Below, in pieces: positions 3,726 to 62,208 of a stretch of DNA of 64,000 nucleotides. The stretch covers positions 83,524 to 147,523 of the forward strand of contig CAIKXE010000004.1 of assembly GCA_903831305.1 (NCBI GenBank), written 5' to 3'. How positions within the stretch are numbered: the first letter of the stretch is position 1; the number at the start of each line of letters is the position of its first letter. The notes beneath the pieces are model-generated. The model worked only from the letters and a program-made list of their open reading frames with translations. It made no database searches and was not told the DNA's origin. This DNA is from an uncultured bacterium (lineage in GTDB: Bacteria; Patescibacteriota; Minisyncoccia; Phycocordibacterales; GWA1-40-21). Position numbers and translations under genes: made by a program.

Positions 3726-3778
3726 TATTGTAGCATAAATTTCGGGACAAAGTAAAAAAAATATGTTAGATTTTAATT

Positions 3779-5245: not shown

Positions 5246-5256
5246 ATTTAATTAGA

Positions 5257-5433
5257 TTAAAAATTATCAACGTCATTATATTCGCTAAACTCTTCCGTAA
5301 AGGTATCCTCCACAATCGCCGGATCAATCACGGCATCATCGCCGATCGGGCCATCTTCTTCGGTGGACTCCTTACCCCCTTTCTTTTTGGTGATGACTTC
5401 ATCATCAACCACTACGCCTTTTTTCTTTGCCAT
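5257..5433 (-). CDS. small acidic hypothetical protein (58 aa)
   Basis: ATG...TAA ORF below the ORF-track cutoff; MAKKKGVVVDDEVITKKKGG...; no homolog recognised. Confidence 0.3.
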   Translation of the reverse strand: MAKKKGVVVDDEVITKKKGGKESTEEDGPIGDDAVIDPAIVEDTFTEEFSEYNDVDNF

Positions 5434-5609
5434 TTGTTCTGTTAAATTTTCTACTATGACTTGGATTTACCCAAGCTTTATAGAAACTTTTTATTAAACT
5501 TGTAATTTATTTTATCCCACTAAAAGTATCTTAATGAGAAGATTTTTATATTAATAGCAAATTTGAAAATGTTTGCAAGGGGTCAAGGGTATAACCCCTG
5601 TGGAAAACT

Positions 5610-6101
5610 CTATTGTCGGTGGCAGGCAAAGTAGGTGAGACCGGTGGCGATGGCATCATACTCATCGTCATATTTGATTTTTTCGGTTATTGTTATGAGC
5701 TTTTTTACCATCATTATGACTTGGCTCTTATCACTTTTACCATAACCAGTGACCGCTACTTTTATTTGTAGGGGGGTAAATTCTTTTATATCCAAATTAT
5801 TTTTAGCGGCCTCGTAAAGCATTACTCCCCGGGCTTCAGATACCCGCATGGCGGTTTTGGCGTTGGTTTTAAAAAAGAGGGTCTCAATCGCCAGGGCCTC
5901 TGGCGCATATTTTTTAATTAAAGTGGATATTTCTATACCAATCAGGTGCAGTCTCTCTTCGGCGGTCTCGGTGGCCAAAGTTTTAAAACATTCAGAAAAA
6001 AGAAGGACTTCTTTTCCGTTGTTTTTTTCGAGGATAGCAATACCCACTCGTTCATAACCAGGATCAATGGCAATAATTTTCATATTATGATTATAACACA
6101 A
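5610..6101 (-). CDS. ruvC: crossover junction endodeoxyribonuclease RuvC
   Basis: MKIIAIDPGYERVGIAIL N-terminus typical of RuvC. Confidence 0.88.
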   Translation of the reverse strand: MCYNHNMKIIAIDPGYERVGIAILEKNNGKEVLLFSECFKTLATETAEERLHLIGIEISTLIKKYAPEALAIETLFFKTNAKTAMRVSEARGVMLYEAAKNNLDIKEFTPLQIKVAVTGYGKSDKSQVIMMVKKLITITEKIKYDDEYDAIATGLTYFACHRQ

Positions 6102-6152
6102 CCGCCCCGGTCATCAGAATGACCACCCCGCCTTAACTAAGGCGGGGATTAG
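6096..6152. repeat. two-hairpin miniature repeat element, copy A
   Basis: CACAACCGCCCC-GGTCATCAGAATGACC-ACCCCGCCTTAACTAAGGCGGGG; related copies at 20581-20640 and inside polA. Confidence 0.6.
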
Positions 6153-6170
6153 TTGGAATAATAGTAGCTA

Positions 6171-6695
6171 TTATTCTGCATTCGTATAAATTTCCTGCAC
6201 CTCATCATTGTCTTCTAGCTCTTCAATCAGTTTGTCTAATTTGAAGCCATCTTCTTCGGAAATTTCTACCATGGTATTTGGCATATAGCCTTCAGGGGTT
6301 TTAGTAAAAGCCCAAGAGGCACTCCCTGGAGCAGCCAAGGCACAGCCATTGGCGGAAAGAATGTGTTTGATTTCGCCAGCCGCCTTATTCCTATTATCCG
6401 TCAAAGCTTCAATCATCAGAGCTACTCCGCCTGGGCCGTAAGCCTCATACATGATGGATTCCATCTGTGTGGCATTGTCACTCTTTTTTAAGGCGCGTTC
6501 AATATTTTCATTTGGCACATTGTATTCCCGCGCCTTCTTAACCGCGGCTTGCACACCAGCCGCTTTGATATCACCGTTAGCTTTTTTAATTTCCACACCA
6601 ATCACCTTGGCCATCTTGGTATAGATTTTACCCTTACGGGCATCAGTGACCATTTTCTTATTCTTGATTTTTGACCATTTATTATGTCCAGACAT
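6171..6695 (-). CDS. yebC: YebC/PmpR family DNA-binding regulator (short, 174 aa)
   Basis: MSGHNKWSKIKNKK...EAYGPGGVA signature; sits between ruvC and ruvB as in many bacteria. Confidence 0.75.
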   Translation of the reverse strand: MSGHNKWSKIKNKKMVTDARKGKIYTKMAKVIGVEIKKANGDIKAAGVQAAVKKAREYNVPNENIERALKKSDNATQMESIMYEAYGPGGVALMIEALTDNRNKAAGEIKHILSANGCALAAPGSASWAFTKTPEGYMPNTMVEISEEDGFKLDKLIEELEDNDEVQEIYTNAE

Positions 6696-6714
6696 ATTAT
6701 TTTAGAAAATATTT

Positions 6715-7776
6715 TTATAAAAGTTTATTCGGGTTCTTTAACTTGAGATGCTGCTTGGCGCGCTCGGTGATGGTCCGGCCACGGGAAGTCCTCTCAATAA
6801 AACCAAGTTGAAGCAGGTATGGTTCATACACATCTTCAATCGTCGCTTGTTCTTCTGACAGAGCGGCGGCTAGGGTGTTTAGCCCTACTGGCCCACCGTT
6901 AAACTTTTCTTCAATCACGGTGAGGAGGGCGCGGTCAGTGGCATTCAAGCCCACCTCATCAATCCCCAGGAGGTTAAGGGCCTCCATCACGGTTTCTTTA
7001 GATAATTTACTCTCTCGGACTTGAGCCAAATCCCGGCTTCTCTTTAACAAATAGTTGGCAGTGCGGGGAGTAAACCTACTTCTCTTAGCAATCTCAGTTT
7101 TGGCTTCGGTCTCAATATCCACTTTTAGTATTTTAGCGGAGCGATGAATAATTTCCTCTATTTCTTCATTAGTATAAAATTCTAGTTTAAAAACTCCACC
7201 GGAAAAACGCGAACGGAGCGGGGCCGAGAGTAGGGCAATACGAGTGGTGGCGGCAATTAAAGTAAAAGGGGGGAGATCAAGCTGAATTGTTCTAGCTGAT
7301 GGTCCCTTACCAATAATAATATCCAGAGAGCCGGACTCCATGGCCGGGTAGAGCACCTCTTCAATTGCTTTATTGAGTCGGTGAATCTCATCAATGAATA
7401 AAATATCACCGGGGGATAGGTTTGTCAGGATACTTGCTAGGTCACCCACCTTTTCTATGGCGGGACCGGAGGTCGCTTTGAGCTGAGCGCGAGTTTCTTT
7501 GGCAATTAAATGGGCCAGGGTGGTTTTACCGAGTCCGGGCGGACCATAAAAAAGTAAATGTTCTGGCGGGTGCTTCCTTTGAGCCGCGGCCGTTAGCAAA
7601 ATTTGCAGATTATCTTTGATGTTCTTCTGGCCGATATAGTCCTTCCAAATAGTGGGCCTAAGGGTCTGATCTAGGAAGTTTACATCCCCTTCACGGCTAG
7701 CCACTACGTCCGTATCCTGGCTTGTTTGTTCAGTCTTTTGACTTTTAGTAATAGAATCTTTGTTTTTGCTTGACAT
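6715..7776 (-). CDS. ruvB: Holliday junction branch migration helicase RuvB
   Basis: Walker A GPPGLGKTT, AAA+ lid, C-terminal winged helix. Confidence 0.92.
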   Translation of the reverse strand: MSSKNKDSITKSQKTEQTSQDTDVVASREGDVNFLDQTLRPTIWKDYIGQKNIKDNLQILLTAAAQRKHPPEHLLFYGPPGLGKTTLAHLIAKETRAQLKATSGPAIEKVGDLASILTNLSPGDILFIDEIHRLNKAIEEVLYPAMESGSLDIIIGKGPSARTIQLDLPPFTLIAATTRIALLSAPLRSRFSGGVFKLEFYTNEEIEEIIHRSAKILKVDIETEAKTEIAKRSRFTPRTANYLLKRSRDLAQVRESKLSKETVMEALNLLGIDEVGLNATDRALLTVIEEKFNGGPVGLNTLAAALSEEQATIEDVYEPYLLQLGFIERTSRGRTITERAKQHLKLKNPNKLL

Positions 7777-7847
7777 ATTTTTTGTTTTATGCTAAGCTAC
7801 TATAAGAAGCCTATGGTGCGTGTCGGAGGCTTTTTTTTGTACCTTTC

Positions 7848-8012
7848 CAGAGTATAAATCTCTAAGCAATTGGATCGTTTGCGCGGTTTACGAATTTTTC
7901 CGAGAGGACGGCCTGGTCTACACCTTCGGGTGCTCTGCGAGACCTATCCTTTAAGAACTGTTTAACTTTTGGTATCTAATATTGAAAGTATTGCTTAGAG
8001 ATTTATGTTCTG
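7848..8012. repeat. 17-nt perfect inverted repeat (ataaatctctaagcaat / attgcttagagatttat) enclosing a ~120-nt GC-richer core with a cUUCGg loop
   Basis: seen directly in sequence; see findings. Confidence 0.5.
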
Positions 8013-9841: not shown

Positions 9842-9870
9842 TTGACAGATAATAGAGTGTGTGCTACTAT
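9842..9870 (+). promoter_or_regulatory. sigma70-like promoter TTGACA-17-TACTAT upstream of GC-rich lipoprotein ORF
   Basis: hexamers read directly; SD AGGAGG 7 nt before ATG at 9955. Confidence 0.5.
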
Positions 9871-9954
9871 CTTAGTTAGATATCTTGATAATCTTTCCCT
9901 GGTGTTACCTGTGTGGGTGCTCAGTGGAAGGAACAAAGAAGTTAGGAGGTTGAG

Positions 9955-10158
9955 ATGAAGAAGGTCTTTGTTTGTCTGGTGATGGTCGGGGTTTGTTTGG
10001 CGGCTGGAGGGTGCTTGATGCCGTATGACCCTTATGCCGGAGGGGTCTATGTGGAACCCGTCCCTCGGCCTTACTACGGTCCGGTGGTCGTCGTTCCGCC
10101 ACCTCCCGTCTACTACCATCACCGGCCACCACCTCCGCGTTACTACCGCCATCGGTAG
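9955..10158 (+). CDS. small Pro/Tyr-rich lipoprotein (67 aa) in GC-rich island
   Basis: signal peptide plus lipobox LAAGGC; strong SD; G/C-ending codons unlike neighbours. Confidence 0.5.
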   Translation: MKKVFVCLVMVGVCLAAGGCLMPYDPYAGGVYVEPVPRPYYGPVVVVPPPPVYYHHRPPPPRYYRHR

Positions 10159-10174
10159 GAATGCGGTAGGGCCA

Positions 10175-10213
10175 GGGCGCGCTTTGTGGAAGCTGATACC
10201 TTCCCCGAGCGCG
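10175..10213 (+). terminator. GC-rich hairpin plus T run
   Basis: agggcgcgc...gagcgcgctctttttgttt. Confidence 0.5.
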
Positions 10214-10250
10214 CTCTTTTTGTTTATAAAATTTATGCTAAAGTATAAAT

Positions 10251-10741: not shown

Positions 10742-13210
10742 ATGGCCAAGATAAACCCTAAAGAAAAATCTCGGGCAGGTAAAAAACTAGTGTTGCTAGA
10801 TGTGCATGCTATCATCCACCGGGCGTATCACGCCTTGCCAGAATTTGTGTCTAGTAAAGGTGTGCCAACCGGCGCTTTATATGGCCTTTCTACCATGCTG
10901 CTAAAAATCATTGGGGATATCAAACCGGACTATATCATGGCTTGTTATGATTTGCCCAAGCCCACTTACCGTCATGAAGCTTACAAGGATTATAAAGCCG
11001 GCCGAGCCAAGACAGATGACGAACTAGTGGCCCAGCTGAAGAAGTCTCGGGAGATCTTTGAAGCTTTTGATATACCAATTTATGATAAAGAGGGTTTTGA
11101 GGCGGATGATATGATCGGCACCTTGGTGGAAAAAGTGTTGAAGTTGGACAAGGCCTCGCCTTGTCCGGAAATTGACGTGGTGATTGCTTCTGGCGATATG
11201 GATACTTTACAGCTAGTGGTGGATGACCGTGTGCGGGTCTATACTTTAAAAAAGGGGATTAAAGATACAATTATTTATAATGAAAAAGCGGTGGTGGAGC
11301 GTTTTGGTTTTTTGCCTAAACTTTTGCCAGATTATAAAGGCCTCCGGGGTGATCCGTCTGACAACATTATTGGTATTAAAGGAATCGGGGAGAAGACAGC
11401 CGGGATTTTAATTCAAAACTTTGGGGGTATAGAGGACATTTATAAAAAATTAAAAGCTAAAGGAGGAAAGGAAGAATTTAAAAAAGCGGGGATCACTGAC
11501 CGAATAGTAAAACTGCTAGAAGAGGGGGAAGAGGAAGCTGAGTTTTCTAAAATGCTTGGAACGATAAGGCGAGATGCGCCGATTGATTTTAAAATTCCGG
11601 AAAAGACTTGGTCGGAAAATCTGGCGGAAGAAAAGGTGCTTAAGTTGTGGAGTGAGTTGGAGTTTAGGACTTTGGGGACAAGATTAAAAGAATTGGTGGG
11701 TGGAAAGGCGGGGGAAAGTGTGGCCGAGAAAAAAGAAGCTATAGTAAAGCAGAATAATCAGTTATTCGCGGATAGTGACTTGTCTGAGACTGAGCTAAAA
11801 GAAGCTCAGATTGCCCTCTGGCTTGTCAATTCCAATATTACGGACCCGAAAATTGAAGATATTATTAACCTGTCTGGACAAAAGGATTTGAAGTCCGCCA
11901 AAGACTTTTTGTTGGCGGAAATTAAAAATAAAAAATTAGATTATGTTTTCACGGAGATTGAGAAACCCCTAATTCCGATTATTAAAGAGATGGAAGCTTG
12001 GGGAATTGTGGTAGATAAAGAGGCCCTTTTGAAATTGTCCGTGGAGAATCACAAGATTTTGGCTGATTTGGAAAAGAAAATTTGGGATTTGGCTGGTAGT
12101 GAATTTAATATAAATTCCCCTAAACAGATGGGAGAGATTTTATTTGATAAGATGGGTTTGCAAGTGAAGAATCAAAAGAAAACGGCTGGTGGTAAAGCTT
12201 CCACTAAGGAAAGCGAGCTGGAAAAAATGCGGGATTTAGACCCGATCATCCCTTTGATTCTAGAATATCGCGAATTGCAGAAAATGCTCTCCACTTATAT
12301 TGATAATATTCCAAACATGGTGGCGCCAGATGGACGCTTGCATGCTCGGTTTTTACAAACTGGAACCACCACTGGACGCATGTCATCGCAAGATCCAAAC
12401 CTACAAAACATTCCGAATAAAAGTGGCCTAGGAATGGAGGTGCGGAAGGCTTTTAAAGCGGGACCGGGCTGTAAGTTAGTAGCTTTTGATTATTCGCAGA
12501 TTGAAATCCGTATTGCTGCCTTTCTATCCGGCGATGAAAAACTTTTGGAGATTTTTAGAAAAGGGGAGGATGTTCACACCGCCGTGGCCTCGGAAGTATT
12601 TGGCGTACCACTCAACCAGGTGGACAAAGAAATGCGCCGAAAAGCTAAAGTAATTAACTTTGGTATTATGTATGGGATGGGTGTTTCCGCTCTTAAACAA
12701 AACCTGGGCACAGAACGAGCGGAAGCGCAAAAGTTTTATGATGATTATTTTGCTAAATTCAGTGGTCTGGCCAAATATTTGGATAAGGTAAAAGAGGAGA
12801 CTAAACAAACCGGGTTTACAGAAACACTGTTTGGTCGCCGTCGCTATTTTGAGGGTATCAAGTCTAAAATTCCTTTTATTAAGGCCATGGCCGAGCGTAT
12901 GGCTATAAATGCGCCAATTCAAGGGACAGAGGCGGATATTATAAAACTAGCGATGATTAAGGTGGGGGAATTTTTGAGCACAACCGCCCCTAACCCCTCC
13001 TTAACTAAGGAGGGGGAGGGAAAGAAAAATATCCACCTGTTGTTACAGGTTCATGATGAACTCGTTTATGAGATGCCGGTGGAAATGGTGGAAAAAATAG
13101 CCCCTAGAATAAAAGAAATCATGGAAAACGTGGTTAGTTTAGAAAAAACTAAAGGCGTGGTCTGCAAGGTGGATTATAAAGTGGGGGATAATTGGGGCGA
13201 GATGAAATAA
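10742..13210 (+). CDS. polA: DNA polymerase I (5' nuclease + polymerase; 3'-5' exo region reduced)
   Basis: 5'-nuclease N-terminus; motif A DYSQIEIR; motif B RRKAKVINFGIMYG; motif C QVHDE; carries in-frame repeat-derived insert. Confidence 0.92.
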   Translation: MAKINPKEKSRAGKKLVLLDVHAIIHRAYHALPEFVSSKGVPTGALYGLSTMLLKIIGDIKPDYIMACYDLPKPTYRHEAYKDYKAGRAKTDDELVAQLKKSREIFEAFDIPIYDKEGFEADDMIGTLVEKVLKLDKASPCPEIDVVIASGDMDTLQLVVDDRVRVYTLKKGIKDTIIYNEKAVVERFGFLPKLLPDYKGLRGDPSDNIIGIKGIGEKTAGILIQNFGGIEDIYKKLKAKGGKEEFKKAGITDRIVKLLEEGEEEAEFSKMLGTIRRDAPIDFKIPEKTWSENLAEEKVLKLWSELEFRTLGTRLKELVGGKAGESVAEKKEAIVKQNNQLFADSDLSETELKEAQIALWLVNSNITDPKIEDIINLSGQKDLKSAKDFLLAEIKNKKLDYVFTEIEKPLIPIIKEMEAWGIVVDKEALLKLSVENHKILADLEKKIWDLAGSEFNINSPKQMGEILFDKMGLQVKNQKKTAGGKASTKESELEKMRDLDPIIPLILEYRELQKMLSTYIDNIPNMVAPDGRLHARFLQTGTTTGRMSSQDPNLQNIPNKSGLGMEVRKAFKAGPGCKLVAFDYSQIEIRIAAFLSGDEKLLEIFRKGEDVHTAVASEVFGVPLNQVDKEMRRKAKVINFGIMYGMGVSALKQNLGTERAEAQKFYDDYFAKFSGLAKYLDKVKEETKQTGFTETLFGRRRYFEGIKSKIPFIKAMAERMAINAPIQGTEADIIKLAMIKVGEFLSTTAPNPSLTKEGEGKKNIHLLLQVHDELVYEMPVEMVEKIAPRIKEIMENVVSLEKTKGVVCKVDYKVGDNWGEMK
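12979..13025 (+). repeat. partial copy of the two-hairpin repeat element inserted in-frame in polA (encodes ~TAPNPSLTKEGEGKK)
   Basis: CACAACCGCCCC-TAA-CCCCTCCTTAACTAAGGAGGGGGAGGG shares 5' 12-mer and hairpin 2 with copies A/B. Confidence 0.55.
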
Positions 13211-13211
13211 T

Positions 13212-13973
13212 ATGTTTTATTTATTTTACGGAGCGGATACAGCCAAAGCCAGAAGCCAAGCCTATAAGGTGGTGGAGGCGGCCAAGAAAAAGCATGAGAC
13301 GGCGGAATTTTTTAAATTAGACAGTGAAAACTTTTCCGCAAGTAAGCTGGATGAGCTTTCCGCTAGCCAAGGACTTTTCTATTCTGCCTTTATTATTTTG
13401 GCTGATAAGTTATGTGATGATGAGGATACTTCAGAGATCTTATTAAAAAAATTAAAGGAACTAAAAGAGTCACCAAACTTTTTTATCTTTTTAGAGGGAG
13501 CGCTGAATAAAAAAGAGCTAGAAAAATTTGGAAAATATGCGGAGAAAGTGGAGGAATTTAACAAACCAGGGCGGAAGCTAAATAAAAAAGAGGCTTTGGC
13601 CGCTAAAGGCGAGAAAATAGACTTCTTTGAATTTGCTAATACGCTGGGAGAGAGAAATAAAAAGCTACTTTGGACTCTGTATCAGGATGCTTTGGCGGAG
13701 GAGGTGGCTTCTGAGGAGGTGCATGCCATGTTTTTTTGGCAGGTAAAGTCCATGCTCGCAGCGGTAAAGTCTAAAGATGCCACCGAGGCCGGGCTAAATC
13801 CTTATGTTTTTACCAAGTCTAAGGGTTATGCGCAAAATTATGGAACCACAGCCCTCGAAAGTGAGAAAAAATTGAAGGAGATGTCTACCAGGCTCTTTGA
13901 AATGTATCATGAGGCCCATCGGGGGAAGGCGGATTTTGCGGTGGCGCTAGAGAGATTTATTTTGGAGTTGTAA
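13212..13973 (+). CDS. DNA polymerase III delta subunit-like protein (HolA-like), uncertain
   Basis: N-terminal FYLFYGAD resembles HolA start; placed after polA; short for HolA. Confidence 0.3.
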   Translation: MFYLFYGADTAKARSQAYKVVEAAKKKHETAEFFKLDSENFSASKLDELSASQGLFYSAFIILADKLCDDEDTSEILLKKLKELKESPNFFIFLEGALNKKELEKFGKYAEKVEEFNKPGRKLNKKEALAAKGEKIDFFEFANTLGERNKKLLWTLYQDALAEEVASEEVHAMFFWQVKSMLAAVKSKDATEAGLNPYVFTKSKGYAQNYGTTALESEKKLKEMSTRLFEMYHEAHRGKADFAVALERFILEL

Positions 13974-14003
13974 ACCTATTTGATTTGAGCATATAAAGTT
14001 CTA

Positions 14004-14027
14004 GGGCCCCCGAGGTTGTCGGGGGCC
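14004..14027 (-). terminator. GC hairpin gggcccccga-caac-ctcgggggccc after Cys-rich ORF
   Basis: perfect 9-10 bp GC stem. Confidence 0.5.
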
Positions 14028-14043
14028 CTTGCTCATCTCTCGG

Positions 14044-14214
14044 TCACTCACCAAGGGGCGGGCACTTGCTTCTGTCGCAGATGCTGAAGGCACAGAGTCC
14101 TTCAGCCAATCCGCACATGATGCAGTAGCGCTCCTCTTCCTTTTTCTCACCGTTCTTGTACACGGTGATGTGCCCGTTTGCCCTGGCTTTTTTTCGGCCT
14201 TCTGCTTCGTCCAT
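14044..14214 (-). CDS. Cys-rich small protein (56 aa) in GC-rich island
   Basis: ATG preceded by AAGGGGG SD; 5 Cys (CxxC..CxxxxC..C); promoter-like TTGCAA-17-TATGGT at 14273-14301. Confidence 0.35.
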   Translation of the reverse strand: MDEAEGRKKARANGHITVYKNGEKKEEERYCIMCGLAEGLCAFSICDRSKCPPLGE

Positions 14215-14331
14215 TGGAACCCCCTTGTCCTTCCGGCTCTATTAGTGGCCGGTCTTTTACTGTTCTTTCTATACCATACTGTATTTCTGTCACTTTTGCA
14301 AGGAGTGAGGCTGGACAAACACTTGGCTGTT

Positions 14332-15060
14332 TTATATTTTTTTATAAAAAGTCTTAAATATTTGTTTTTGGAATTCCGCAATCCTCTTACTCTCTATAGT
14401 CATACAAGTCTCAGAATTGTAATCAATGAAGGCTACTTTGTCCCCATAAATTATTTCTGTGACATTGTGCTCAAAAGGACCAAAATCCGGCGGTAATACT
14501 TTGGTAAAGCGGTCCAAACTCGGTCTCTTGTTCTTAGCTGTTTGAACATTGGTGATCACCTCGCGTTGTAGCCTTTTTTTATCACGCATTTTTTGATAAA
14601 TTCTCGGTACATATTTATCTTTTTTTTCCTGACCATTTTTGTTTGAACTGTAACGGTAAAAGGTGTCACCTTTTTTTAGACTCCTGACCACATCATCAAA
14701 TATTCTTTTAGTACCATCCTTACCCTCTAGGAATCTGATCTTGGGTCTCTTCTCACTGCTGGCATAGGCATCTTCCAAGTCTGGCAATATCTCAAAGAAA
14801 TCAATTTTTAAATCATCAAACAAGGTTTCCAGCCGGTTGGGTGGCTCAGCACCAAAGACCACGCTTTTCAGTTTTTGGGTTTTGGTCACCAGTTTTTTAT
14901 CCAGGAGGGCGGGGAGAGCTTTATAAATGAGGGGGCGGTGGATAGAAGTTTTCTCGGATATCTCGGAAATATTTGAAGTCCCCATCTCAAGTAGCGCCAA
15001 ATAGATAGCGCTTTCATTCTTGGTCAGCCCTATTTTCTCCAAAATTTTGTTTTTGTCCAT
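14332..15060 (-). CDS. TrmB-family transcriptional regulator (paralog 0)
   Basis: N-terminal wHTH LTKNESAIYLALLEMG; full-length similarity to the three regulators in the ABC-transporter locus. Confidence 0.7.
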   Translation of the reverse strand: MDKNKILEKIGLTKNESAIYLALLEMGTSNISEISEKTSIHRPLIYKALPALLDKKLVTKTQKLKSVVFGAEPPNRLETLFDDLKIDFFEILPDLEDAYASSEKRPKIRFLEGKDGTKRIFDDVVRSLKKGDTFYRYSSNKNGQEKKDKYVPRIYQKMRDKKRLQREVITNVQTAKNKRPSLDRFTKVLPPDFGPFEHNVTEIIYGDKVAFIDYNSETCMTIESKRIAEFQKQIFKTFYKKI

Positions 15061-15372
15061 TTTTTATCTGTTTTAGTTATTAAAATTGTAACTCAATTTT
15101 ACAAATATATTATCATAATCATTAAGAAAGTTTAAGTTTTTCAAGGATTTATCCATATTATTGTATTGATTTGACGTGTTTGTAATATATTGTTACATCT
15201 TTTATGAGTAGAATAGGCCAGAGATTAACGGTTTGCGGGTAACGCCCGTATTTACATTACAGTACCGCCTCCAAAATAGGTGATGGCGAAGTAATTTTAA
15301 TATTATATTGTTCAGATAAGAGCTCCTTGAGATTTGAATCTAGGTTTAGAAAGGAAAAAAGGAGAAGGGCCA

Positions 15373-15599
15373 TGCGTTACGAAGGTGGTTTGACCTTGGA
15401 ACAGGCCAGGCGGGTGGAGGTGGGGGATGTGATCGTCCTGCACGACTACGGACCACTCAAAGTGATTGATGGGCACAAACTGCCCCCCTCAACGGTAAAT
15501 GGTGGGGATACCCCGCGGTCCATGGTGGTCAGGACGCAGGGTGGCCTCAGACGCCTCCTCATCGTCACGGCTCAGTCTGAAACCTTGTCCGTCTTCTGA
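15373..15599 (+). CDS. small hypothetical protein (~75 aa) in GC-rich island
   Basis: SD AAAGGAGAAGG then ATG; G/C-ending codons; terminator hairpin 15628-15652. Confidence 0.35.
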
Positions 15600-15627
15600 C
15601 TACTGACCTAGCATGTCACAAAACTGC

Positions 15628-15656
15628 CAGCCCGAGTAATCTCGGGCTTTCTCAAT
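15628..15656 (+). terminator. hairpin gcccgag-taat-ctcgggc plus T run
   Basis: read directly. Confidence 0.55.
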
Positions 15657-15672
15657 AAGTTTAAATATTTTG

Positions 15673-15745
15673 TCCGCCCAGTTGGAGTCGAACCAACGAC
15701 CTTCTCCTTAAAAGGGAGCTGCTCTACCAGCTGAGCTATGGGCGG
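15673..15745 (-). tRNA. tRNA-Lys (anticodon UUU)
   Basis: hand fold: 7-bp acceptor CCGCCCA/TGGGCGG, D arm GCTC/GAGC, loop CTTTTAA, T arm GTTGG-TTCGACT-CCAAC. Confidence 0.8.
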
Positions 15746-15803
15746 AATGCAAAAAATATAACAAAAAAAACAGCAAATGTCCAATTTAAAAGGTAAAAAG
15801 TAA

Positions 15804-16217
15804 TTACAGCATTGGAACATCTATGGCATAGAGCCCAGCACCGGAGAGGATGAGGGAAGCACAGATAGCGGTAAGGAGAAGATAAAAAACCATATCTCTT
15901 TTTAGAATTGATTCTTCCTCATATTCTATTAGTAGTTCACAAGTAGAAATAACCGCCAGGACTAGGGCTGCGACTTGGGTGTAAGCGCCACCGATGAGCA
16001 GGAACCCGCCGATAATCTCCACTAAGCCAAGAAGAGTAGTAAAAAAACCAGCTGGTTTGACACCTAAAATACTTAAGGAAGATATCCAACCCTTTTTTTC
16101 TTTACCTAGTTTTAAGAAACCAAGATTTAAGAAAACAAGACCAATAACAATCCTCAGAATCAGAGGGGCCAGTAATGAATAAGAAAATAGTTCGGGAAAA
16201 AGATTAAATGTTTGCAT
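15804..16217 (-). CDS. DoxX-family membrane protein
   Basis: 4 TM helices, DoxX-like LVFLNLGFLKL...GFLLIGG pattern. Confidence 0.65.
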   Translation of the reverse strand: MQTFNLFPELFSYSLLAPLILRIVIGLVFLNLGFLKLGKEKKGWISSLSILGVKPAGFFTTLLGLVEIIGGFLLIGGAYTQVAALVLAVISTCELLIEYEEESILKRDMVFYLLLTAICASLILSGAGLYAIDVPML

Positions 16218-16246
16218 ACGGGTATTATACCATGTAATATAAATTT

Positions 16247-16723
16247 ATGAAGCAAAAGGAAGTAATTGTCATCTTGGATAATATCAGAAGCACATATAAT
16301 GTGGGATCTATTTTCCGCACAGCAGATGCCCTAGGGGTAAAACAGCTTATTTTGGGTGGCACCACGCCAACACCGATAGACCGGTTTGGGCGTGAGCGAG
16401 CAGATATTGCTAAGGTGTCCTTGGGGGCGGAGAAAAGTGTGCCCTGGAAGCAGGAGAAAGCTATTTTGCCGGTTATCAAGAAGCTAAAAAAAGAGGGTTA
16501 TCAGATAATTGCCGTTGAACAGTCAGAAAAATCGGTGGATTATAAAAGGGTAAAAACCGCTGGTCGAGTAGCTTTTATTATGGGGGCGGAGGTGGAGGGG
16601 GTAGCAAAGGATATTTTAAAAATTGCTGACGTGATTGCGGAGATACCTATGTTGGGTAAAAAAGAATCATTAAATGTATCTGTTTCCTTTGGTGTCGCTT
16701 TATTTCGGATTTTGAATGTTTAA
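16247..16723 (+). CDS. SpoU/TrmH family RNA 2'-O-methyltransferase
   Basis: SPOUT motifs VILDNIRSTYNVGSIFRTADALG ... IMGAEVEGV. Confidence 0.75.
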   Translation: MKQKEVIVILDNIRSTYNVGSIFRTADALGVKQLILGGTTPTPIDRFGRERADIAKVSLGAEKSVPWKQEKAILPVIKKLKKEGYQIIAVEQSEKSVDYKRVKTAGRVAFIMGAEVEGVAKDILKIADVIAEIPMLGKKESLNVSVSFGVALFRILNV

Positions 16724-16732
16724 AACAGCACC

Positions 16733-16830
16733 TCCAGTTAATATGATTTTGGAGGCTTCACAGGCGGGTAGCCGAGAGAGAGCAAATTTTTGCAGAGAAT
16801 TTTATGCGCACTCCAAAATCATATTAACTG
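16733..16830. repeat. 20-nt perfect inverted repeat (CAGTTAATATGATTTTGGAG ... CTCCAAAATCATATTAACTG) with 57-nt spacer, between convergent genes
   Basis: read directly; bidirectional terminator or MITE-like element. Confidence 0.55.
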
Positions 16831-16852
16831 TAGGTTCTTGCAAATGGCTGAC

Positions 16853-17713
16853 TTATTTCTGACACCCTGGGCAGTAATGCGTTCCTCGGCCCGCATGTTT
16901 GGTTTTTATTATTGACAGGCCACACCTTTTACAAGCCTCACCTTTTCGGCCATAGACCATGAGGTGGGGGACAAAGCCACCCTTCTCTCCGTTACTTCGC
17001 ACATAATTTTTGGCGGAGGTCCCTTTTTTCTTGATAGAAAACTTTAGCACATTAATAATATTCTGATGTAAATCCCTTATTTCCTTGTTTGTCAGTGTTT
17101 TTGTTTTGCGCATTGGTAAAACACTGCTTAAAAAAGCACTTTCGTCTGCATAGATATTGCCAATACCGGCAAGCAAATGCTGATCTAAAAGTATTTGTTT
17201 TATAGTTCGGTTTGGGTACTTAGTAAATATTTTTTTAAGATTCGCTATGGTGAAAGTTTTAGAAAGAGGTTCTAGACCAATTTCTGTATCAATATACTTT
17301 TTTAGTTTATCGTCCAATATTTTGAACCAACCAAATTTTCTTAAGTCATTGAAGTAGAGATGACTTCTGTCTTTGAAGGTAAAGAACAGGCGGGTGTGCC
17401 GACCAGGGGTTTGGATATCAGCCGTGGGGTGGCCACCGGTGATTATTTTACCAGTTTGAGGCATAAAGATTAGTTGCCCGGTCATTTTGAGGTGAATAAT
17501 CAGGCTTAACTCGCCACTCAAATGGACTAAAAGCATTTTAGCTCGGCGATCTAGGCTAAGTATCTTTTTCCCCGTTACCATTTTAGTGAAGTTTTGAACG
17601 GAAGTGGGAGAGACAGTTTTTGGCCACAAAATAGTCACTTGGGAAATCACTTTTCCCTTAAGTGTTTTAGCCAGCTCTCTTTTGATAGTTTCAACTTCTG
17701 GTAATTCGGGCAT
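16853..17713 (-). CDS. mutM: formamidopyrimidine-DNA glycosylase
   Basis: N-terminal PELPEVE, H2TH, C-terminal zinc finger CxxC...CxxC. Confidence 0.88.
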   Translation of the reverse strand: MPELPEVETIKRELAKTLKGKVISQVTILWPKTVSPTSVQNFTKMVTGKKILSLDRRAKMLLVHLSGELSLIIHLKMTGQLIFMPQTGKIITGGHPTADIQTPGRHTRLFFTFKDRSHLYFNDLRKFGWFKILDDKLKKYIDTEIGLEPLSKTFTIANLKKIFTKYPNRTIKQILLDQHLLAGIGNIYADESAFLSSVLPMRKTKTLTNKEIRDLHQNIINVLKFSIKKKGTSAKNYVRSNGEKGGFVPHLMVYGRKGEACKRCGLSIIKTKHAGRGTHYCPGCQK

Positions 17714-17790
17714 AATCTAAGTGTATGTTTAAACGGTAAAAATGTAAAATATATACAGGACATAAAATTATTATCTGTTATAATAGGCCA

Positions 17791-18711
17791 GTGAAGAATA
17801 AGGAAAACATTGCCGGTATATTATGTTTGATAGCGATGTTTTTTGTTATAATCAATCTGTTTGCGGTGGCCTTTCCTCAATATGCAGCGATCTTTTTTGC
17901 TCAAGGTAAAACAGTGGAGGCTGTGGTGGCTAAATATGAGAAGGCCCCAAAGGAGGCCAAAGTAAAAATATTAATTGTGCCTGGACATGAAGCCGATTTT
18001 GGTGGGGCCTTGTATAATGGACTTATCGAGCGTGATATGAACGTGGCTTTAGCAGAAAAGATTTTAAGCGAGCTTAGCCTAAATGAAAAATTTCAGATTA
18101 TTTTAGCCCGTGACTATTATAAATGGAACCCGATTTTAGCTGATTATTTTACCAAGAATTTGGAGGCGATAAAAAAATGGAAGGATGATCAAAAAGGAGC
18201 AATGCTGTCTTTGGTTAAAAATGGCAAAATTCAATTGATTGATTCTGTTCCGCATAGTACTGCCCCAACTGCTCAAGCTTTACGCTTGTACGGTATAAAT
18301 AAGTGGGCCAATGAAAATAAAGTAGATATTGTTTTGCATGTGCACTTTAATGATAATTATCGGAAAAACGGGGTGCCTAAATATAGTGGTTTTTCCGTTT
18401 ATGTCCCCGAGGAACAGTATTCTAACGCGACCTCTAGTGTGGCTCTGGCGGGGGACCTCTTGGCTGAATTATTAAGGATTGGTCATGTGAGTACCTTAGA
18501 GCCGGAGTCGGCTGGGGTGGTGGAAGATCAGGACTTGATTGCTATCGGCAGTTATAATACCGCGGACGCTCTAAGCGTCCTGATTGAGTATGGCTATATT
18601 TATGAGAGCCAGTTTAAAACAAGGGATTTAAGAACTGTTTTTTATGATAAAGCCGCCAAGGCTACCACTCAAGGTGTTGTGAATTTCTTTGAAAGTCGCT
18701 CGTCTTTTTAG
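17791..18711 (+). CDS. N-acetylmuramoyl-L-alanine amidase-like (Amidase_3-like) protein with N-terminal TM
   Basis: ILIVPGHEADFGGA ... DIVLHVHFND resembles Amidase_3 metal-binding pattern. Confidence 0.45.
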   Translation: MKNKENIAGILCLIAMFFVIINLFAVAFPQYAAIFFAQGKTVEAVVAKYEKAPKEAKVKILIVPGHEADFGGALYNGLIERDMNVALAEKILSELSLNEKFQIILARDYYKWNPILADYFTKNLEAIKKWKDDQKGAMLSLVKNGKIQLIDSVPHSTAPTAQALRLYGINKWANENKVDIVLHVHFNDNYRKNGVPKYSGFSVYVPEEQYSNATSSVALAGDLLAELLRIGHVSTLEPESAGVVEDQDLIAIGSYNTADALSVLIEYGYIYESQFKTRDLRTVFYDKAAKATTQGVVNFFESRSSF

Positions 18712-24042: not shown

Positions 24043-24273
24043 TCAGGTGAGGAAGAGACCGAGGGTCTGCTGGTCTTCGGGTTCTTCGGCCACATACCAG
24101 GAACTGACGATGAGCACACTGTGAGTTTTGGGGTGCTTGCTAGGCCACTCTTTGAGTGCCCGTTTTTCCCGTTCGTTTTGGTTCAGACGTTGCTCTGAAA
24201 CAACGTCAATCTCCCCGGTGACCGGTTTGTCGCGTACACTCAAGGCGCTGATCATGACTCGGTACCTGTACAT
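24043..24273 (-). CDS. small hypothetical protein (76 aa; alternative upstream ATG at 24297) in GC-rich island
   Basis: SD AAGGAGG 7 nt before ATG MYRYRVMIS...; G/C-ending codons. Confidence 0.35.
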   Translation of the reverse strand: MYRYRVMISALSVRDKPVTGEIDVVSEQRLNQNEREKRALKEWPSKHPKTHSVLIVSSWYVAEEPEDQQTLGLFLT

Positions 24274-33856: not shown

Positions 33857-33878
33857 AGATTATTAATAATTAATCACC

Positions 33879-33908
33879 AAAATAGCCCTAAACCAGGGCT
33901 ATTTTGGT
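33879..33908 (+). terminator. hairpin aaaatagccct-aaacc-agggctatttt
   Basis: perfect 11-bp stem. Confidence 0.65.
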
Positions 33909-33922
33909 GTCAGAAAAAGTGC

Positions 33923-33951
33923 TTGACAAATAGTCCATACTATGCTAGTGT
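33923..33951 (+). promoter_or_regulatory. sigma70-like promoter TTGACA-17-TAGTGT for GC-rich two-gene island
   Basis: hexamers read directly; SD AGGGAG before ATG 34023. Confidence 0.45.
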
Positions 33952-34022
33952 TATAGGTAGATCGATCCACCGTAATTCGCGTCCCATATCGGGGTGCGAC
34001 GGGGATCAAGGGAGATATCGGG

Positions 34023-34394
34023 ATGAAGAAGATCATTGGTATGCTGGTGGCTGTCGCGGTCGTGGCGTTGTTTGCCACGGGGTGCGCGTCGCTCACTCGG
34101 GATCCGAACCGTGGGCGGGGCGTGGAGTATTCGGAGAAGATCCTCCGGCCGACGGGCGACGTCCCGAAGATCGGGACCGTGATCCACGTGATCGCGATTC
34201 TGAATCGGGAGGTGGAGTCTCAGGTCATCTGGACCGAGATGCCCACTGACTACGCCATGTTCCCGAAAGTTCGGGTCATGACGGTCAAGGGGTTTCGCGC
34301 CTGGTCGGAGGGTGTGGGTGACGAGAGAGACTCGTTGTGCATGGTCCAGTACGATAGTGAGACCAGCATACGCCTCATCCTCATGAAGGACTGA
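34023..34394 (+). CDS. lipoprotein (123 aa) in GC-rich island
   Basis: signal peptide plus lipobox LFATGC; GC3-rich codons. Confidence 0.5.
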   Translation: MKKIIGMLVAVAVVALFATGCASLTRDPNRGRGVEYSEKILRPTGDVPKIGTVIHVIAILNREVESQVIWTEMPTDYAMFPKVRVMTVKGFRAWSEGVGDERDSLCMVQYDSETSIRLILMKD

Positions 34395-34564
34395 CCACCC
34401 GAGTTTGTGGGTTAACTCTGACAACTCATATGGTCCTGAGGCGCCATTGTAAAAAGCCTCACTGTCTCACGATGTGTGTCGTGACTGATAAGTCCAAAAG
34501 GACGAAACAGAAAAGTTCTTTGAGAGGTAAGTAAGCGGGGTAAATCCCCAGAAAGAGAGAGACA

Positions 34565-35404
34565 ATGAATACGGAAACGAAGAATGGTCGGCCGGTGAAG
34601 GTTCATTTGGCCATGAGGGACGGTCCAGTTCCCAGGTCGATCAGGCAAGTTCTGCCGATCGTCGGGGATGAGGCCTCCCACACTTACGTGGAGGTCCAAG
34701 CCGAGGCAGACCTCGTCATCTTTGACGAGGTGCGGGAGATCGAACGGGGATACGACAAGGAGAAATCCTACGCGTTCCTGCAGATGCCCGGAGTGAAGGT
34801 TCCGCGTCTGCCGGATAACTGCGAGGTCATCAACCCCCTGCAGATCTTGCCGGGCTTGATCGGGTCCATCAGTAAGGCTCGTTTGAGACTTCCCCCGCCC
34901 GCCATGTCGGCCGTGGAAGAAGAGGAAGAGACGACTGTGTCTTTACTCCCCGACGCCCTGCGTATCCTCGTCATTGAGGATACGCCGCGGCACCAGGCGA
35001 GTGCTAAGCAAGGTCTGGCCGGACACCGACTCATGGTAGCCACGGGGTACGAGGAAGCGATGGAGGTTCTCGGCAACGAGAAGTTCGACGTCGTCCTCAC
35101 GGACCTGCAACTACCCATGTCCTCGCGCACGCTCGGTACCGAAGCGTTCAAGCTCGGTCAGCTGGTGCCTTATGGCCTCATGCTCATGATCGAGGCGGCG
35201 CACCAGGGGGCGAGACATGTGGCGGTCGTCACAGACATGAACCATCACGCGGACTGGCTATCGGCAGCATTCGATCACTTCCGCTACTCGGTGAAAATCG
35301 AGGGAGCGGTCGTGCAGATGATGCACGCGCCGATGAAGCGGGACGCGTCTGGTGAGTCCGTCAAGGACTGGGTCGCCGCCCTTGACCGGCTCCTGAAAGA
35401 GTAG
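34565..35404 (+). CDS. protein with C-terminal CheY-like receiver-type domain (279 aa), GC-rich island
   Basis: LRILVIEDT...DVVLTDLQLPM pattern resembles REC domain; no obvious output domain. Confidence 0.45.
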   Translation: MNTETKNGRPVKVHLAMRDGPVPRSIRQVLPIVGDEASHTYVEVQAEADLVIFDEVREIERGYDKEKSYAFLQMPGVKVPRLPDNCEVINPLQILPGLIGSISKARLRLPPPAMSAVEEEEETTVSLLPDALRILVIEDTPRHQASAKQGLAGHRLMVATGYEEAMEVLGNEKFDVVLTDLQLPMSSRTLGTEAFKLGQLVPYGLMLMIEAAHQGARHVAVVTDMNHHADWLSAAFDHFRYSVKIEGAVVQMMHAPMKRDASGESVKDWVAALDRLLKE

Positions 35405-35470
35405 CTCTTAACCTAAAGCGCGGATATAATCCGCCAAGTGACCTGACATGTTACAGACAACTGTCAACGG

Positions 35471-35505
35471 GCCCGGACTGCAACACGCAGTTCCGGGCCT
35501 TTAAA
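35471..35505 (+). terminator. hairpin ggcccggactgc...gcagttccgggcc plus T run
   Basis: read directly. Confidence 0.55.
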
Positions 35506-35582
35506 CTTGTCTGAATTTCAAAATAAGGTGTGGATTATAAATAAGCGGTCGCGTTCTTATATTCCACCCCTAAACAGGGTTT

Positions 35583-36526: not shown

Positions 36527-36697
36527 ATGAAAAAGTGGCTTTGGATTGCTCTGATTATCGTGGTGGTGGCTATTATCGGCGCGGGGATGAATAAGGGGAA
36601 GGATACTACAAATATCAAAGTAGGGGCTACCCTCTCTCTTACGGGCAGTTTAGCCTCAATTGGTAAATCAGAAATGATTGCTAGATTGGCAATTTAG
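36527..36697 (+). pseudogene. truncated substrate-binding protein remnant (56 codons: TM anchor + first beta-strand KVGATLSLTGSLASIG)
   Basis: aligns with N-termini of SBP-1/2/3 then stops. Confidence 0.5.
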
Positions 36698-40402: not shown

Positions 40403-41134
40403 ATGAAAAAAGAAGGGAAAGAACAACTCTTAAAACTAGAAAATATCAGTGTGAACTTTGGCGGGGTGCAAGCCTTGAAGGGTGTTTCTCTGTCATTTGA
40501 TGAGGGGGAGATAGTGGCCTTGATGGGTCCAAACGGGGCTGGCAAATCTACTGTGCTAAAGGCGATCTTTGGCCTAGTGGAGACGGCTGGTGGTAAGGTG
40601 CTGTGGCATGAGCAGGAGATTCGGCCTGTACCGCATGAGGTGGTCAAGCTCGGTATCTCTTTTGTGCCCCAGGGCCGGCGGGTATTTAAATATTTGACCG
40701 TGAAGGAAAATCTGGAGCTAGGCGGAGTCACAATAAAGAATAAGAATATTTTGAAGGAAAGGCTGGAAGAAGTGCTGGTCCTGTTCCCGGCTTTGCGGGA
40801 AAAGCTTTCCGCCAAGACCGGGGCGCTGTCCGGTGGACAACAGCAGATGGTGGCGATAGCCAGGGGACTCATCACTGATCCCAAGATATTGCTTTTAGAT
40901 GAGCCGTCACTTGGGCTATCACCTAAGATTGTGGGCGAAGTCTTTCAAAAAATTAAGGAAATAAATGAAAAGAGAAAGATGACTATAGTGGTGGTGGAGC
41001 ATAATATTAAGTCGCTCTTGCCCATCACCGACCGGGCCTATATTTTAGATAAAGGGGTGCTGGTTCATACTGGTGTGGGTACAGAAATCCTAAAAGATAA
41101 TATTTTAGAGAAGGTGTTTTTGGCCAAAATCTAA
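40403..41134 (+). CDS. livF: branched-chain amino acid ABC transporter ATP-binding protein (LivF-like)
   Basis: Walker A GPNGAGKST, signature LSGGQQQMVAIA, Walker B LLLDEPS. Confidence 0.85.
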   Translation: MKKEGKEQLLKLENISVNFGGVQALKGVSLSFDEGEIVALMGPNGAGKSTVLKAIFGLVETAGGKVLWHEQEIRPVPHEVVKLGISFVPQGRRVFKYLTVKENLELGGVTIKNKNILKERLEEVLVLFPALREKLSAKTGALSGGQQQMVAIARGLITDPKILLLDEPSLGLSPKIVGEVFQKIKEINEKRKMTIVVVEHNIKSLLPITDRAYILDKGVLVHTGVGTEILKDNILEKVFLAKI

Positions 41135-61624: not shown

Positions 61625-61794
61625 GACCCTTACAGGGTCAGTACCCGTGTTTGGATTTTTTATTCTCCTTCGAAAGACTCAGGATCTAAAAAATCTCAAA
61701 CAGGCTTCGCTTCCGCCCCGTAAGCAAAATCATTTGCTTACTCATCTCCACATAACAAAAATCGCCCATCAGAATGAGCGGGTTTTTGTACATG

Positions 61795-62208
61795 TGGAGA
61801 TGGGCGGAATCGAACCGCCGTGCATAAGAGTATCCTAATTGCTTCTACAAAGTCTAGTTAATTTATCTTCACTTGCGTGAATTTAAGTCTGTGATTTCAA
61901 AAAGAACAAAATGATCACAAACCGATCCTCTAATTTCTTTCCGTACCGAGAAAATTACGGAATATAATCTAATTTTATGTCACCCAGACCAGTTTATTAG
62001 ATATGGACTGATTGGATGCCGCTTAGGTTTGTTTTATGAAACGTAAGCGAAAGCAAAGTTGTTGGCCGCAAAATATGGGGACACAACAGACTTTACTCTT
62101 GAAACAATGCTATTAGCAGTTGTTTGTTTATTAACATTTTAGGTGTGTATAATAATGCACCACTTTGCGCAATCAAGGACAGATCAGATGTCTAGGCCGA
62201 TCATCCCC
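61795..62208 (-). ncRNA. ssrA: tmRNA (ssrA), ~414 nt
   Basis: 5' GGGGATG pairs with 3' CATCTCC-A; 3' T arm GGCGG-TTCGATT-CCGCC; smpB 0.4 kb away. Confidence 0.6.

Follow-up and report, generated by a model that had tools for sequence, protein, structure and literature searches.

Must a GC-rich stretch within an AT-rich bacterial genome be of foreign origin? This question is raised by a two-gene island in DNA from an uncultured bacterium of the Patescibacteriota (GenBank assembly GCA_903831305.1, contig CAIKXE010000004.1, positions 83,524 to 147,523 of the forward strand); the whole stretch of 64,000 nucleotides (nt) that was analysed is called the window here. The island lies in a Liv-type transporter locus and encodes a lipoprotein and a tandem receiver (REC-REC) protein, and a sequence matching a type III hammerhead ribozyme stands between the two genes. 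A preliminary description had regarded the island as a self-contained, compositionally aberrant unit, one of five in the window (the other four are called mini-cassettes c1 to c4), and this was supported. It had also proposed a high-GC donor, a family of mobile mini-cassettes or an assembly chimera as possible origins, which are weighed below. The island is a genuine and conserved two-gene, ribozyme-associated module of the Parcubacteria.

Composition and authenticity of the island

The GC content of positions 33951-35500 is 0.58-0.59, whereas the mean of the whole window is 0.41. In a 400-base profile, values of 0.52-0.61 were confined to 34.0-35.6 kb; a finer scan gave the bounds 33951-35500 and showed that GC falls to 0.44-0.46 in the 170-base spacer between the two open reading frames (ORFs) that fill the island. 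The prevalence of G and C at third codon positions (GC3), seen in the preliminary description, was confirmed by the comparison with flanking genes that it had recommended: GC3 is 0.829 in the lipoprotein ORF (z = 6.2) and 0.760 in the 279-aa ORF (z = 5.2), against 0.416 ± 0.066 (mean and standard deviation; maximum 0.548) in the backbone reference of 63 window ORFs. GC is likewise raised at all codon positions, the first included, and in the untranslated regions (UTRs). Amino-acid use is also shifted, with an arginine to lysine ratio of 48:35 in the GC-rich genes and 691:1603 in the backbone. The island had been placed between SBP-2 and livM genes; a Peripla_BP_6 binding protein is encoded upstream and a BPD_transp_2 permease downstream, and the wider surroundings also hold an ABC ATPase and TrmB-type regulators.

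A compositional break of this kind would be expected if reads of two organisms had been joined during assembly, and nothing further speaks for a chimera. The match to the window is 100% over 5000 bases in Logan assembly ERR4221775 and over 3656 bases in ERR4222573, and it includes both junctions; identical junctions in independent assemblies indicate that the island is not chimeric. The gene order is repeated in a third record (an ENA/NCBI contig), the exact 279-aa protein is present on 21 contigs from four sources (NCBI, JGI, Logan and ENA; the longest of 216,961 bp), and the architecture was seen again in other species. An assembly artefact can therefore be practically dismissed.

Hammerhead ribozyme, leader and 3' elements

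The hammerhead core was first exposed by comparing the regions upstream of the REC genes in related loci (denoted by L numbers). With the Rfam model RF00008, the window copy scored 32.9 bits, the copy in L005 45.3 and two matches in L031 31.2-32.9, whereas the gathering score is 48.5; no match reached this threshold. An independent structural search found 10 hammerhead copies. In an alignment of eight copies, 99.5% of the cells were paired, against 35-46% in controls with slid partners, and compensatory changes were found at 12 pairs: six in stem I, three in stem II, one in stem III and two in the hairpin of an upstream extension. The layout is that of a three-helix type III hammerhead, with stems I and II closed and stem III open, and it is supported by covariation. 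The cleavage triplet is GUC in the window and GUC, GUA or GUU in the other copies.

The core of the window copy departs from the canonical one in having an A at position 8 (34490) with C3 unchanged. This CUGAUAA core is common to the window copy and that of its closest relative, L031; the canonical CUGAUGA occurs in the orthologous copies of L001, L005, L006, L007 and L032, and A8 was found in 14 of the 159 copies of the hammerhead subclass. According to Perreault et al. (2011, PMC3088659), C3 of the hammerhead pairs with G8, and the covarying form of this pair is U3-A8. With A8 opposite an unchanged C3, this pairing rule suggests that the window ribozyme is probably impaired, and its cleavage is, judged from the sequence, probably attenuated.

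The structured extension abuts the ribozyme on the 5' side. It was found upstream of eight hammerheads, seven of which precede a gene of the REC family; its AUGG/CCAU pairing is invariant and therefore gives no test by covariation. AUGG, the hairpin and the CCAU of its loop form a candidate H-type pseudoknot that touches stem III. Immediately 3' of stem III is a leader, AGUUCUUUGA in the window, in which G.TC.TT is invariant among 10 aligned copies. Its consensus is A-R-A-W-GWTCTTTGAAA, and it follows every hammerhead copy within a few bases. The leader was also considered as a general 5'UTR signal of the window cassettes and rejected, as AGWTCTTTRA gave 32 matches over the whole window with 31.6 expected and is not enriched.

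In L010 (about 9850-9990 and 10800-10900) and L012 (about 420-520 and 1320-1400), a different repeated element was observed on both sides of the REC gene. It is composed of a long hairpin (CYCCCACCAGA...GGUGGGAG), then UAAAA, and then the common leader AAGUUCUUUGA, and lacks a hammerhead, which suggests that the leader is the constant part and that the structure ahead of it can be exchanged.

The REC gene is followed by a conserved 35-nt 3'UTR element, a 5-bp hairpin with the loop CUGAYAY and the tail GACAACUAUCAA. Three of the five stem pairs covary, and the mean column identity in nine orthologous 3'UTRs is 79%, above that of the protein. The covariance model of this element (R1) scored 45-53 bits on its nine training 3'UTRs and had no further match in 1.04 Mb; the impression by eye that the motif is common to c1, c3 and c4 was rejected accordingly. 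Neither the 3'UTR element nor the upstream extension nor the L012 motif matched a known Rfam family. The GC hairpin terminator of the preliminary description was found at 35470-35499, with a stem that covaries in the orthologs; the scanner did not call it because its T-run, merely TTT, is too short. The earlier list of parts thus held for the promoter, Shine-Dalgarno sequence, lipobox and terminator, but the hammerhead and the conserved elements in the UTRs had gone unnoticed, as had the excess of mRNA structure described below.

The hammerhead and leader together were found at no fewer than 120 metagenome loci. Arrays of four or five hammerheads, each before a GC-richer small gene, are present in L137, L185, L187 and L161, the backbones of which are AT-rich (TrmB regulators, EF-G; GC3 0.2-0.3). 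Among the matches listed, the cargo comprises 65 distinct proteins, nearly all singletons; receiver proteins are the only cargo family found more than twice, and the cargo is GC-richer than its own contig in 55 of 68 cases (p = 1e-8). An AT-rich gene for a HIT-like protein of 122 aa (MSKFKSLRK...) has a hammerhead directly 3' in L031 (1551-1613) and is bracketed by hammerheads in L185 (482-1836); a homolog of it is located near a hammerhead and leader in L124, a contig of 0.575 GC. Full-text literature searches with hammerhead or self-cleaving-ribozyme terms and the names of these bacteria returned no relevant paper.

The tandem receiver family is GC-rich wherever it is found

The C-terminal half of the 279-aa protein had been described as receiver-like, with no output domain. 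This was borne out by the AlphaFold 2 (AF2) model (predicted local distance difference test score, pLDDT, 89), in which the protein is predicted to have the (βα)5 CheY-like fold, and by the C-terminal REC residues D139, D180, T223 and K267, which are invariant in 36 sequences and were assigned to the catalytic positions by motif order in the receiver set, not by superposition. The Pfam family Response_reg (PF00072) matched at 25.8 bits, under its gathering score of 30.2, and over the first half of the profile only. No histidine kinase was found among the genes adjacent to the REC gene in the loci examined.

The protein has 86 homologs with 36-83% identity, none above 83% apart from those of the same genome. 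Every homolog with an organism name belongs to the Parcubacteria/Paceibacteria (Taylorbacteria, Wolfebacteria and others). When each species was represented by a single genome, the scan gave 21 full-length relatives, all in metagenome-assembled genomes (MAGs) of uncultured bacteria, with titles that include Paceibacterota, Parcubacteria, Taylorbacteria, Wolfebacteria, Campbellbacteria and Moraniibacteriota; eight have the automated title 'uncultured Candidatus Saccharibacteria' and two merely 'bacterium'. The Saccharibacteria titles were taken cautiously, since L006 is so labelled and yet has housekeeping proteins 85-88% identical to those of the window. The same scan gave two further matches, both with short generic receiver similarity, and no high-GC relative was found beyond such similarity. 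Shorter paralogs with a single receiver and the motifs DVVLTDL...TDxxHH are encoded in other GC-rich islands (L009, L017 and L137).

The preliminary description had suggested a high-GC donor such as an actinobacterium, which might be the host of an epibiotic cell of the candidate phyla radiation (CPR). A recent transfer of this kind would agree with the shift of composition and amino-acid use toward GC. However, the REC gene is GC-richer than its own flanks in all 28 loci sampled (mean +0.126, Wilcoxon p = 4e-6), with a GC content of 0.39-0.60 across genomes of 0.32-0.53, and the upstream partner gene, where present, is likewise GC-rich. The correlation between REC and host GC is weak and not significant (r = 0.27). 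Since the gene is GC-rich wherever it is found, high GC is a property of the gene family and not the relic of a high-GC donor. The identity ceiling of 83%, the restriction of named homologs to the Parcubacteria, the 21 species-representative carriers and the lipoprotein without any relatives also stand against such a transfer, which is rejected as very improbable.

In L033, the REC gene was observed within two tandem arrays (1485-7908 and 10981-17980) of paralogous proteins of 410-590 aa, which begin with a CxxC...CxxC zinc-ribbon motif (MNQETKQCQNCKQEF...) and have no Pfam family on record.

Conserved excess structure in the coding regions

Compared with dinucleotide shuffles, the two island coding regions had folding z values of -4.09 and -3.42, whereas three host genes had +0.26, -0.75 and -0.97. 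Synonymous-codon shuffles, in which the protein, the codon usage and the three-base periodicity are all kept, gave z = -3.39 for the lipoprotein (0/100 shuffles), -2.84 for REC, -2.55 for c2, -1.59 for c1 and about 0 for c3 and c4, against -0.92 to +0.94 for nine host controls of the window. The other eight REC orthologs had values of -2.66 to -8.27, each with none of 50 shuffles as stable; six further host controls had -1.88 to +0.63, so that the 15 controls range overall from -1.88 to +0.94. In a codon alignment of nine REC orthologs, the consensus fold had z = -4.0 against codon-column shuffles (0/32) and contained 15 compensatory pairs; with the same five genomes, z was -4.5 for REC and -1.6 for the LivM control. 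The excess extends to other cargo: 54 hammerhead-led genes (among the matches listed) had a mean z of -2.43, whereas 38 backbone ORFs had -0.49 (Mann-Whitney p = 4e-6). The most negative of these 38 overlaps cassette c2, and another low one overlaps a tRNA gene. The synonymous divergence (dS) of REC is 1.2-1.6, whereas that of the host genes is saturated, despite a higher nonsynonymous divergence (dN) of REC; the lower dS and the over-structured mRNA are consistent with each other. As a clock of transfer, dS was rejected, being confounded by synonymous constraint and composition.

Two single genes with strong structure were also observed. The REC ortholog of L003 (10001-10819) has the extreme z of -8.27, with a minimum free energy of -368 against -288 kcal/mol, and has neither a hammerhead nor the conserved 3'UTR element. 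The window ORF at 40403-41134 (+) has z = -3.36 and is the sole clearly non-cassette gene of the window so strongly structured; its orthologs in L001 and L032 carry ABC_tran domains, and it therefore seems to encode an ABC ATPase.

The explanation that we favour, with about an even chance of being right, is that a hammerhead-processed transcript yields separate mRNAs and that the GC richness reflects selection for stable RNA structure. Several points weigh against it. The window ribozyme, with A8 and an unchanged C3, may be slow or dead. Four GC-rich genes (c3, c4, the lipoprotein gene of L001 and the 154-aa gene of L031) have z values near 0, so that structure alone cannot explain every GC-rich cassette, and z may be somewhat inflated, as synonymous shuffling erases local heterogeneity of GC3. 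At predicted unpaired REC sites GC3 is 0.56, still above the backbone, but the contrast between paired and unpaired sites is also found in host genes, so that this comparison does not discriminate. Some of the 'cargo ORFs' in metagenomes were possibly mis-called and may include structured spacers. Finally, polarised synonymous changes lean from GC to AT (11:5, 17:5 and 29:3), which would fit decay from a GC-richer past, though parsimony is biased in that direction.

Promoter, lipoprotein gene and mini-cassettes

The coordinates of the features are collected in Table 1. The TTGACA-17-TAGTGT promoter of the preliminary description is in the sequence and has in addition a TG at 33943-33944, ahead of TAGTGT, which makes it an extended -10 promoter. 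The consensus promoter scanner did not call it, because its -10 matches the consensus at three of six positions; a near-identical copy (ttgacaaat..ctatgctagtRtta.agggtaga) precedes the L001 lipoprotein gene. The Shine-Dalgarno sequence given before as AGGGAG was found as AAGGGAG at 34008-34014, and the lipobox, MKKIIGMLVAVAVVALFATG followed by Cys, was read from the translation as described. The hairpin upstream of the island is also present (33875-33909); it had been counted as part of the unit, but is the terminator of the preceding binding-protein gene. The lipoprotein has no Pfam or PHROGs family and is an orphan: among 5.8 billion proteins only itself was found. Its similarity to the same-position lipoprotein of L001 is weak (30% over 80 aa, pairwise E = 3e-6).

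Table 1. Positions of the island features and of the mini-cassettes in the window.
Feature	Position	Strand	Details
Island promoter	33923-33951	+	TTGACA 33923-33928, 17 nt, TAGTGT 33946-33951; read from sequence
Lipoprotein gene, 123 aa	34023-34394	+	Signal peptide; lipobox LFATG before the cysteine, Cys21
Structured extension abutting the ribozyme	34430-34460	+	AUGG 34430-34433; hairpin GAGGC 34438-34442 / GCCUC 34456-34460; loop CCAU 34444-34447
Type III hammerhead ribozyme	34459-34513	+	32.9 bits with Rfam RF00008; E = 1e-4, relative to the stretch searched
Predicted cleavage site	34466/34467	+	After GUC
Hammerhead stem I	34467-34484	+	
Hammerhead core	34485-34491	+	CUGAUAA
Hammerhead stem II	34492-34503	+	
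Hammerhead GAAA	34504-34507	+	
Leader	34514-34523	+	AGUUCUUUGA
Tandem receiver gene, 279 aa	34565-35404	+	N-terminal degenerate REC-like fold; C-terminal REC; no output domain
Conserved 3'UTR element	35420-35469	+	Hairpin A 35420-35434; then 5-bp hairpin, loop CUGAYAY and tail GACAACUGUCAA, 35435-35469
Terminator hairpin	35470-35502	+	13-bp G+C-rich stem, short TTT tail; read from sequence
Mini-cassette c1	9842-10222	+	Promoter 9842-9870; 67-aa Pro/Tyr-rich lipoprotein 9955-10158; nested terminator
Mini-cassette c2	14044-14214	-	56-aa Cys-rich ORF with own Shine-Dalgarno sequence and terminator
Mini-cassette c3	15372-15599	+	75-aa ORF
Mini-cassette c4	24043-24273	-	76-aa ORF; orphan; promoter-like site 24357-24330

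The four further cassettes of the preliminary description are genuine small ORFs that have Shine-Dalgarno sequences and hairpins (GC3 0.63-0.71, z 3.2-4.4). Their neighbours encode PBP, RuvAB, PilB, TsaE, PolA, Fpg, Mur ligase, G6PD and PilM, and no relative of the small cassette proteins was found in 1.1 Mb of related loci. The mini-cassettes share with the island the composition and the self-contained expression signals, with no demonstrable motif: no common end motifs of the five cassettes were detectable with the R1 covariance model or by leader enrichment. The c3 product has six distant homologs, some of them as repeats inside larger proteins; it matches a unit repeated 5-10 times in proteins of 1166-1750 aa found elsewhere, so that this GC-rich mini-gene encodes a free-standing copy of the repeat of giant proteins. 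The window also contains seven tRNA genes and a tmRNA gene (61792-62208, -; 98 bits); two of the mini-cassettes are close to tRNA genes, with 73 bases between c3 and tRNA-Lys and about 320 between c4 and tRNA-Ser.

Between the island terminator and the permease gene is an imperfect inverted repeat at 35524-35573 (GGTGTGGATTATAA ... TTATATTCCACCCC). It includes TGTGGATTA, one mismatch from the complement of a DnaA box, and in L005 and L031 the cassette promoters are preceded by a perfect TGTGGATAA. An ORF of 56 aa between the permease and the ABC ATPase (36527-36697, +) looks like the beginning of a Liv-type binding protein, with a signal anchor and IKVGATLSLTG, and is probably a gene fragment; the Liv transporter locus appears rearranged or decaying.

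Vertical descent and exchange

The REC protein of the window is 69% identical to that of L005, 63% to that of L006 and 60-63% to those of L032 and L001, and the permease identities for L005, L006, L032 and L001 are 88, 80, 65 and 64%. The ranking of REC is thus that of the host genes, which fits mainly vertical descent, as does the location of REC near a Liv cluster in five genomes, although the position within the cluster varies.

An alternative is that the cassettes are accessory genes that come from a GC-richer pool and pass between Parcubacteria, carried by transformation or by a vehicle not seen here; the high GC would then record a slowly ameliorating history, and the ribozyme and leader would be a portable expression module. 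We consider this a serious rival, though less probable than the favoured explanation. L006 is syntenic with the window over 6.7-14.0 kb, with 62-88% protein identity; after the holA-like gene, where the window has c2, it contains a different GC-rich gene of 154 aa, followed by a hammerhead and REC. The positional ortholog of c1 in L006 (3825-4163) matches in the promoter, signal-peptide and terminator regions, but its mature protein is unrelated. Such differences at the same sites of related genomes indicate that cassettes turn over at fixed intergenic sites. Moreover, REC has at least four contexts (Liv loci, between pyrG and recR, a locus with maf among the upstream genes, and the zinc-ribbon protein array), and the upstream neighbourhood of the closest homolog (83%) differs. 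The cargo behind the hammerhead and leader, nearly all singletons or orphans among the matches listed, the excess of GC to AT changes, the REC dS below that of the host genes and the occurrence of hammerhead and leader on the 0.575-GC contig L124, beside a homolog of a Parcubacteria gene, also speak for exchange.

On the other side, REC identity tracks host divergence, and the conserved excess structure of the coding region is left unexplained by exchange. No integrase, transposase or reverse transcriptase was found near any cassette, the neighbours being housekeeping genes, and no repeated copies or flanking repeats of the cassettes were found in the 64-kb window. A phage reservoir was rejected: among 2.9 million viral contigs the REC family is absent, and hammerhead and leader were found in just two, both unrelated phages. 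PHROGs gave no phage families; its only matches were two families of unknown function, and these cover nothing but the receiver part of the REC protein. Since the exact ribozyme core is generic in phages, it says nothing about a phage origin. The mobile mini-cassettes of the preliminary description are thus supported in part, by the site turnover and the several REC contexts, whereas common end motifs, a recombinase and flanking repeats were not found. The favoured explanation and that of exchange are not mutually exclusive.

GC-biased gene conversion at recombination hot spots of hypervariable surface or accessory loci was also considered, by analogy with the GC-rich recombining surface-protein loci of other AT-rich bacteria. 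It would agree with the turnover and mosaicism at conserved sites and with GC raised in UTRs and at all codon positions. However, no donor or silent copies were found in the 64 kb of the window, ordered and conserved RNA structure is not predicted by it, and the GC to AT excess opposes a currently active bias that raises GC. The GC offset of +0.13 to +0.2 is also far above what is expected of biased gene conversion in bacteria, and this origin is improbable. Adenine mutagenesis of the kind caused by diversity-generating retroelements was rejected as the cause of high GC, because the sense strand has no A-specific depletion and the AT skew is about 0.

Proposed mechanism and significance

According to the favoured explanation, the island would be a transcription unit that is resident in its Parcubacteria genome and fixed in the chromosome. 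It would belong to a class of accessory genes, associated with ribozymes and found throughout the lineage, in which selection favours highly structured RNAs. One transcript would start from the extended -10 promoter, the signals of which are in the sequence, and would contain in order the gene of a fast-evolving surface lipoprotein, a structured spacer, the type III hammerhead, the leader, the REC-REC gene, the 3'UTR hairpin and the terminator. Cutting by the hammerhead after GUC at 34466 would part the lipoprotein mRNA, with a 2',3'-cyclic phosphate end, from the REC mRNA, which would begin with a 5'-OH and keep the folded ribozyme at its 5' end. From the known hammerhead chemistry, the stability and dosage of the two genes might then be independent; the G8 to A change in the core probably slows the cleavage in the window copy. 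The high GC conserved in the gene family would go with selection for extensive base pairing of the coding region. Such structure might provide a long-lived mRNA in an AU-rich, RNase-exposed transcriptome; alternatively, it might shield the ribozyme from misfolding. The REC-REC protein is probably a phosphorylation-dependent signalling adaptor, paired with a variable surface lipoprotein.

It is tentatively proposed, as something that may well prove wrong, that Parcubacteria carry a distinct class of genes with a GC-rich 'dialect', punctuation by a hammerhead and a fixed leader, and coding regions selected for conserved stable RNA structure. If true, this would be a post-transcriptional expression compartment within otherwise AT-rich, streamlined genomes, possibly used for long-lived or stored mRNAs or for dual-function coding RNAs of variable surface and signalling proteins. 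What hammerheads do in bacteria is still poorly understood; what appeared to be a 'foreign island' offers a testable system of RNA biology, in which a self-cleaving ribozyme has a fixed intergenic place and conserved flanking elements. A compositional anomaly need not mean horizontal transfer: here the orthologs have it in common, and it accompanies selected mRNA structure, which is relevant to island-prediction tools and to the binning and decontamination of CPR genomes. Parcubacteria are thought to live attached to other cells, and the Parcubacteria-specific tandem receiver with its hypervariable lipoproteins is a candidate surface-signalling module.

Comparison with known systems

The 279-aa protein resembles known receiver proteins, including the REC-REC part of PleD (PDB 1w25); however, it has no output domain and no adjacent histidine kinase. 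Further differences are a long insertion that follows strand 3, an HH motif past the Thr that is invariant, a score below the Pfam cutoff and the confinement of the family to the Parcubacteria.

As a self-contained promoter-gene-terminator unit of deviant composition, the island is similar to phage 'morons' and classical genomic islands. However, it is not in a prophage and has no integrase, tRNA target or direct repeats, and orthologs in many genomes share its deviant composition, which is not the mark of a recent arrival. Compared with classical islands, no mobility genes were found among the neighbours, no repeats, and no homolog outside the Parcubacteria. Compared with integron cassettes, the five cassettes of the window have no common attC-type end motif, and no integrase was seen.

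The ribozymes share with the type III members of RF00008 the three-way junction, the CUGANGA...GAAA core, the GUC triplet and covariation in all stems. They differ in their lower scores (32.9-45.3 against 48.5 bits) and in a short stem III of 4 bp, and the window copy also in G8 to A.

The closest parallel might be the clustered hammerheads that flank single genes in prophages (Perreault et al. 2011, PLoS Comput Biol, PMC3088659). In both, hammerheads separate genes that belong to one transcription unit, and the genes beside them differ from case to case; the role proposed for the prophage clusters is to cut a long transcript into gene-length mRNAs. Loci related to the island have four or five hammerheads in a row. 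The present loci, in contrast, are chromosomal in Parcubacteria, among housekeeping genes and with no phage genes found; the backbone of the window encodes PBP, RuvAB, PolA, Mur ligase, G6PD and similar proteins and is not that of a prophage. Only one copy is present in the window, and its core has A8. Here the ribozyme is tied to a fixed leader, and in the REC family also to the pseudoknot-like extension and the 3'UTR element, whereas the cargo is GC-enriched and its mRNA over-structured.

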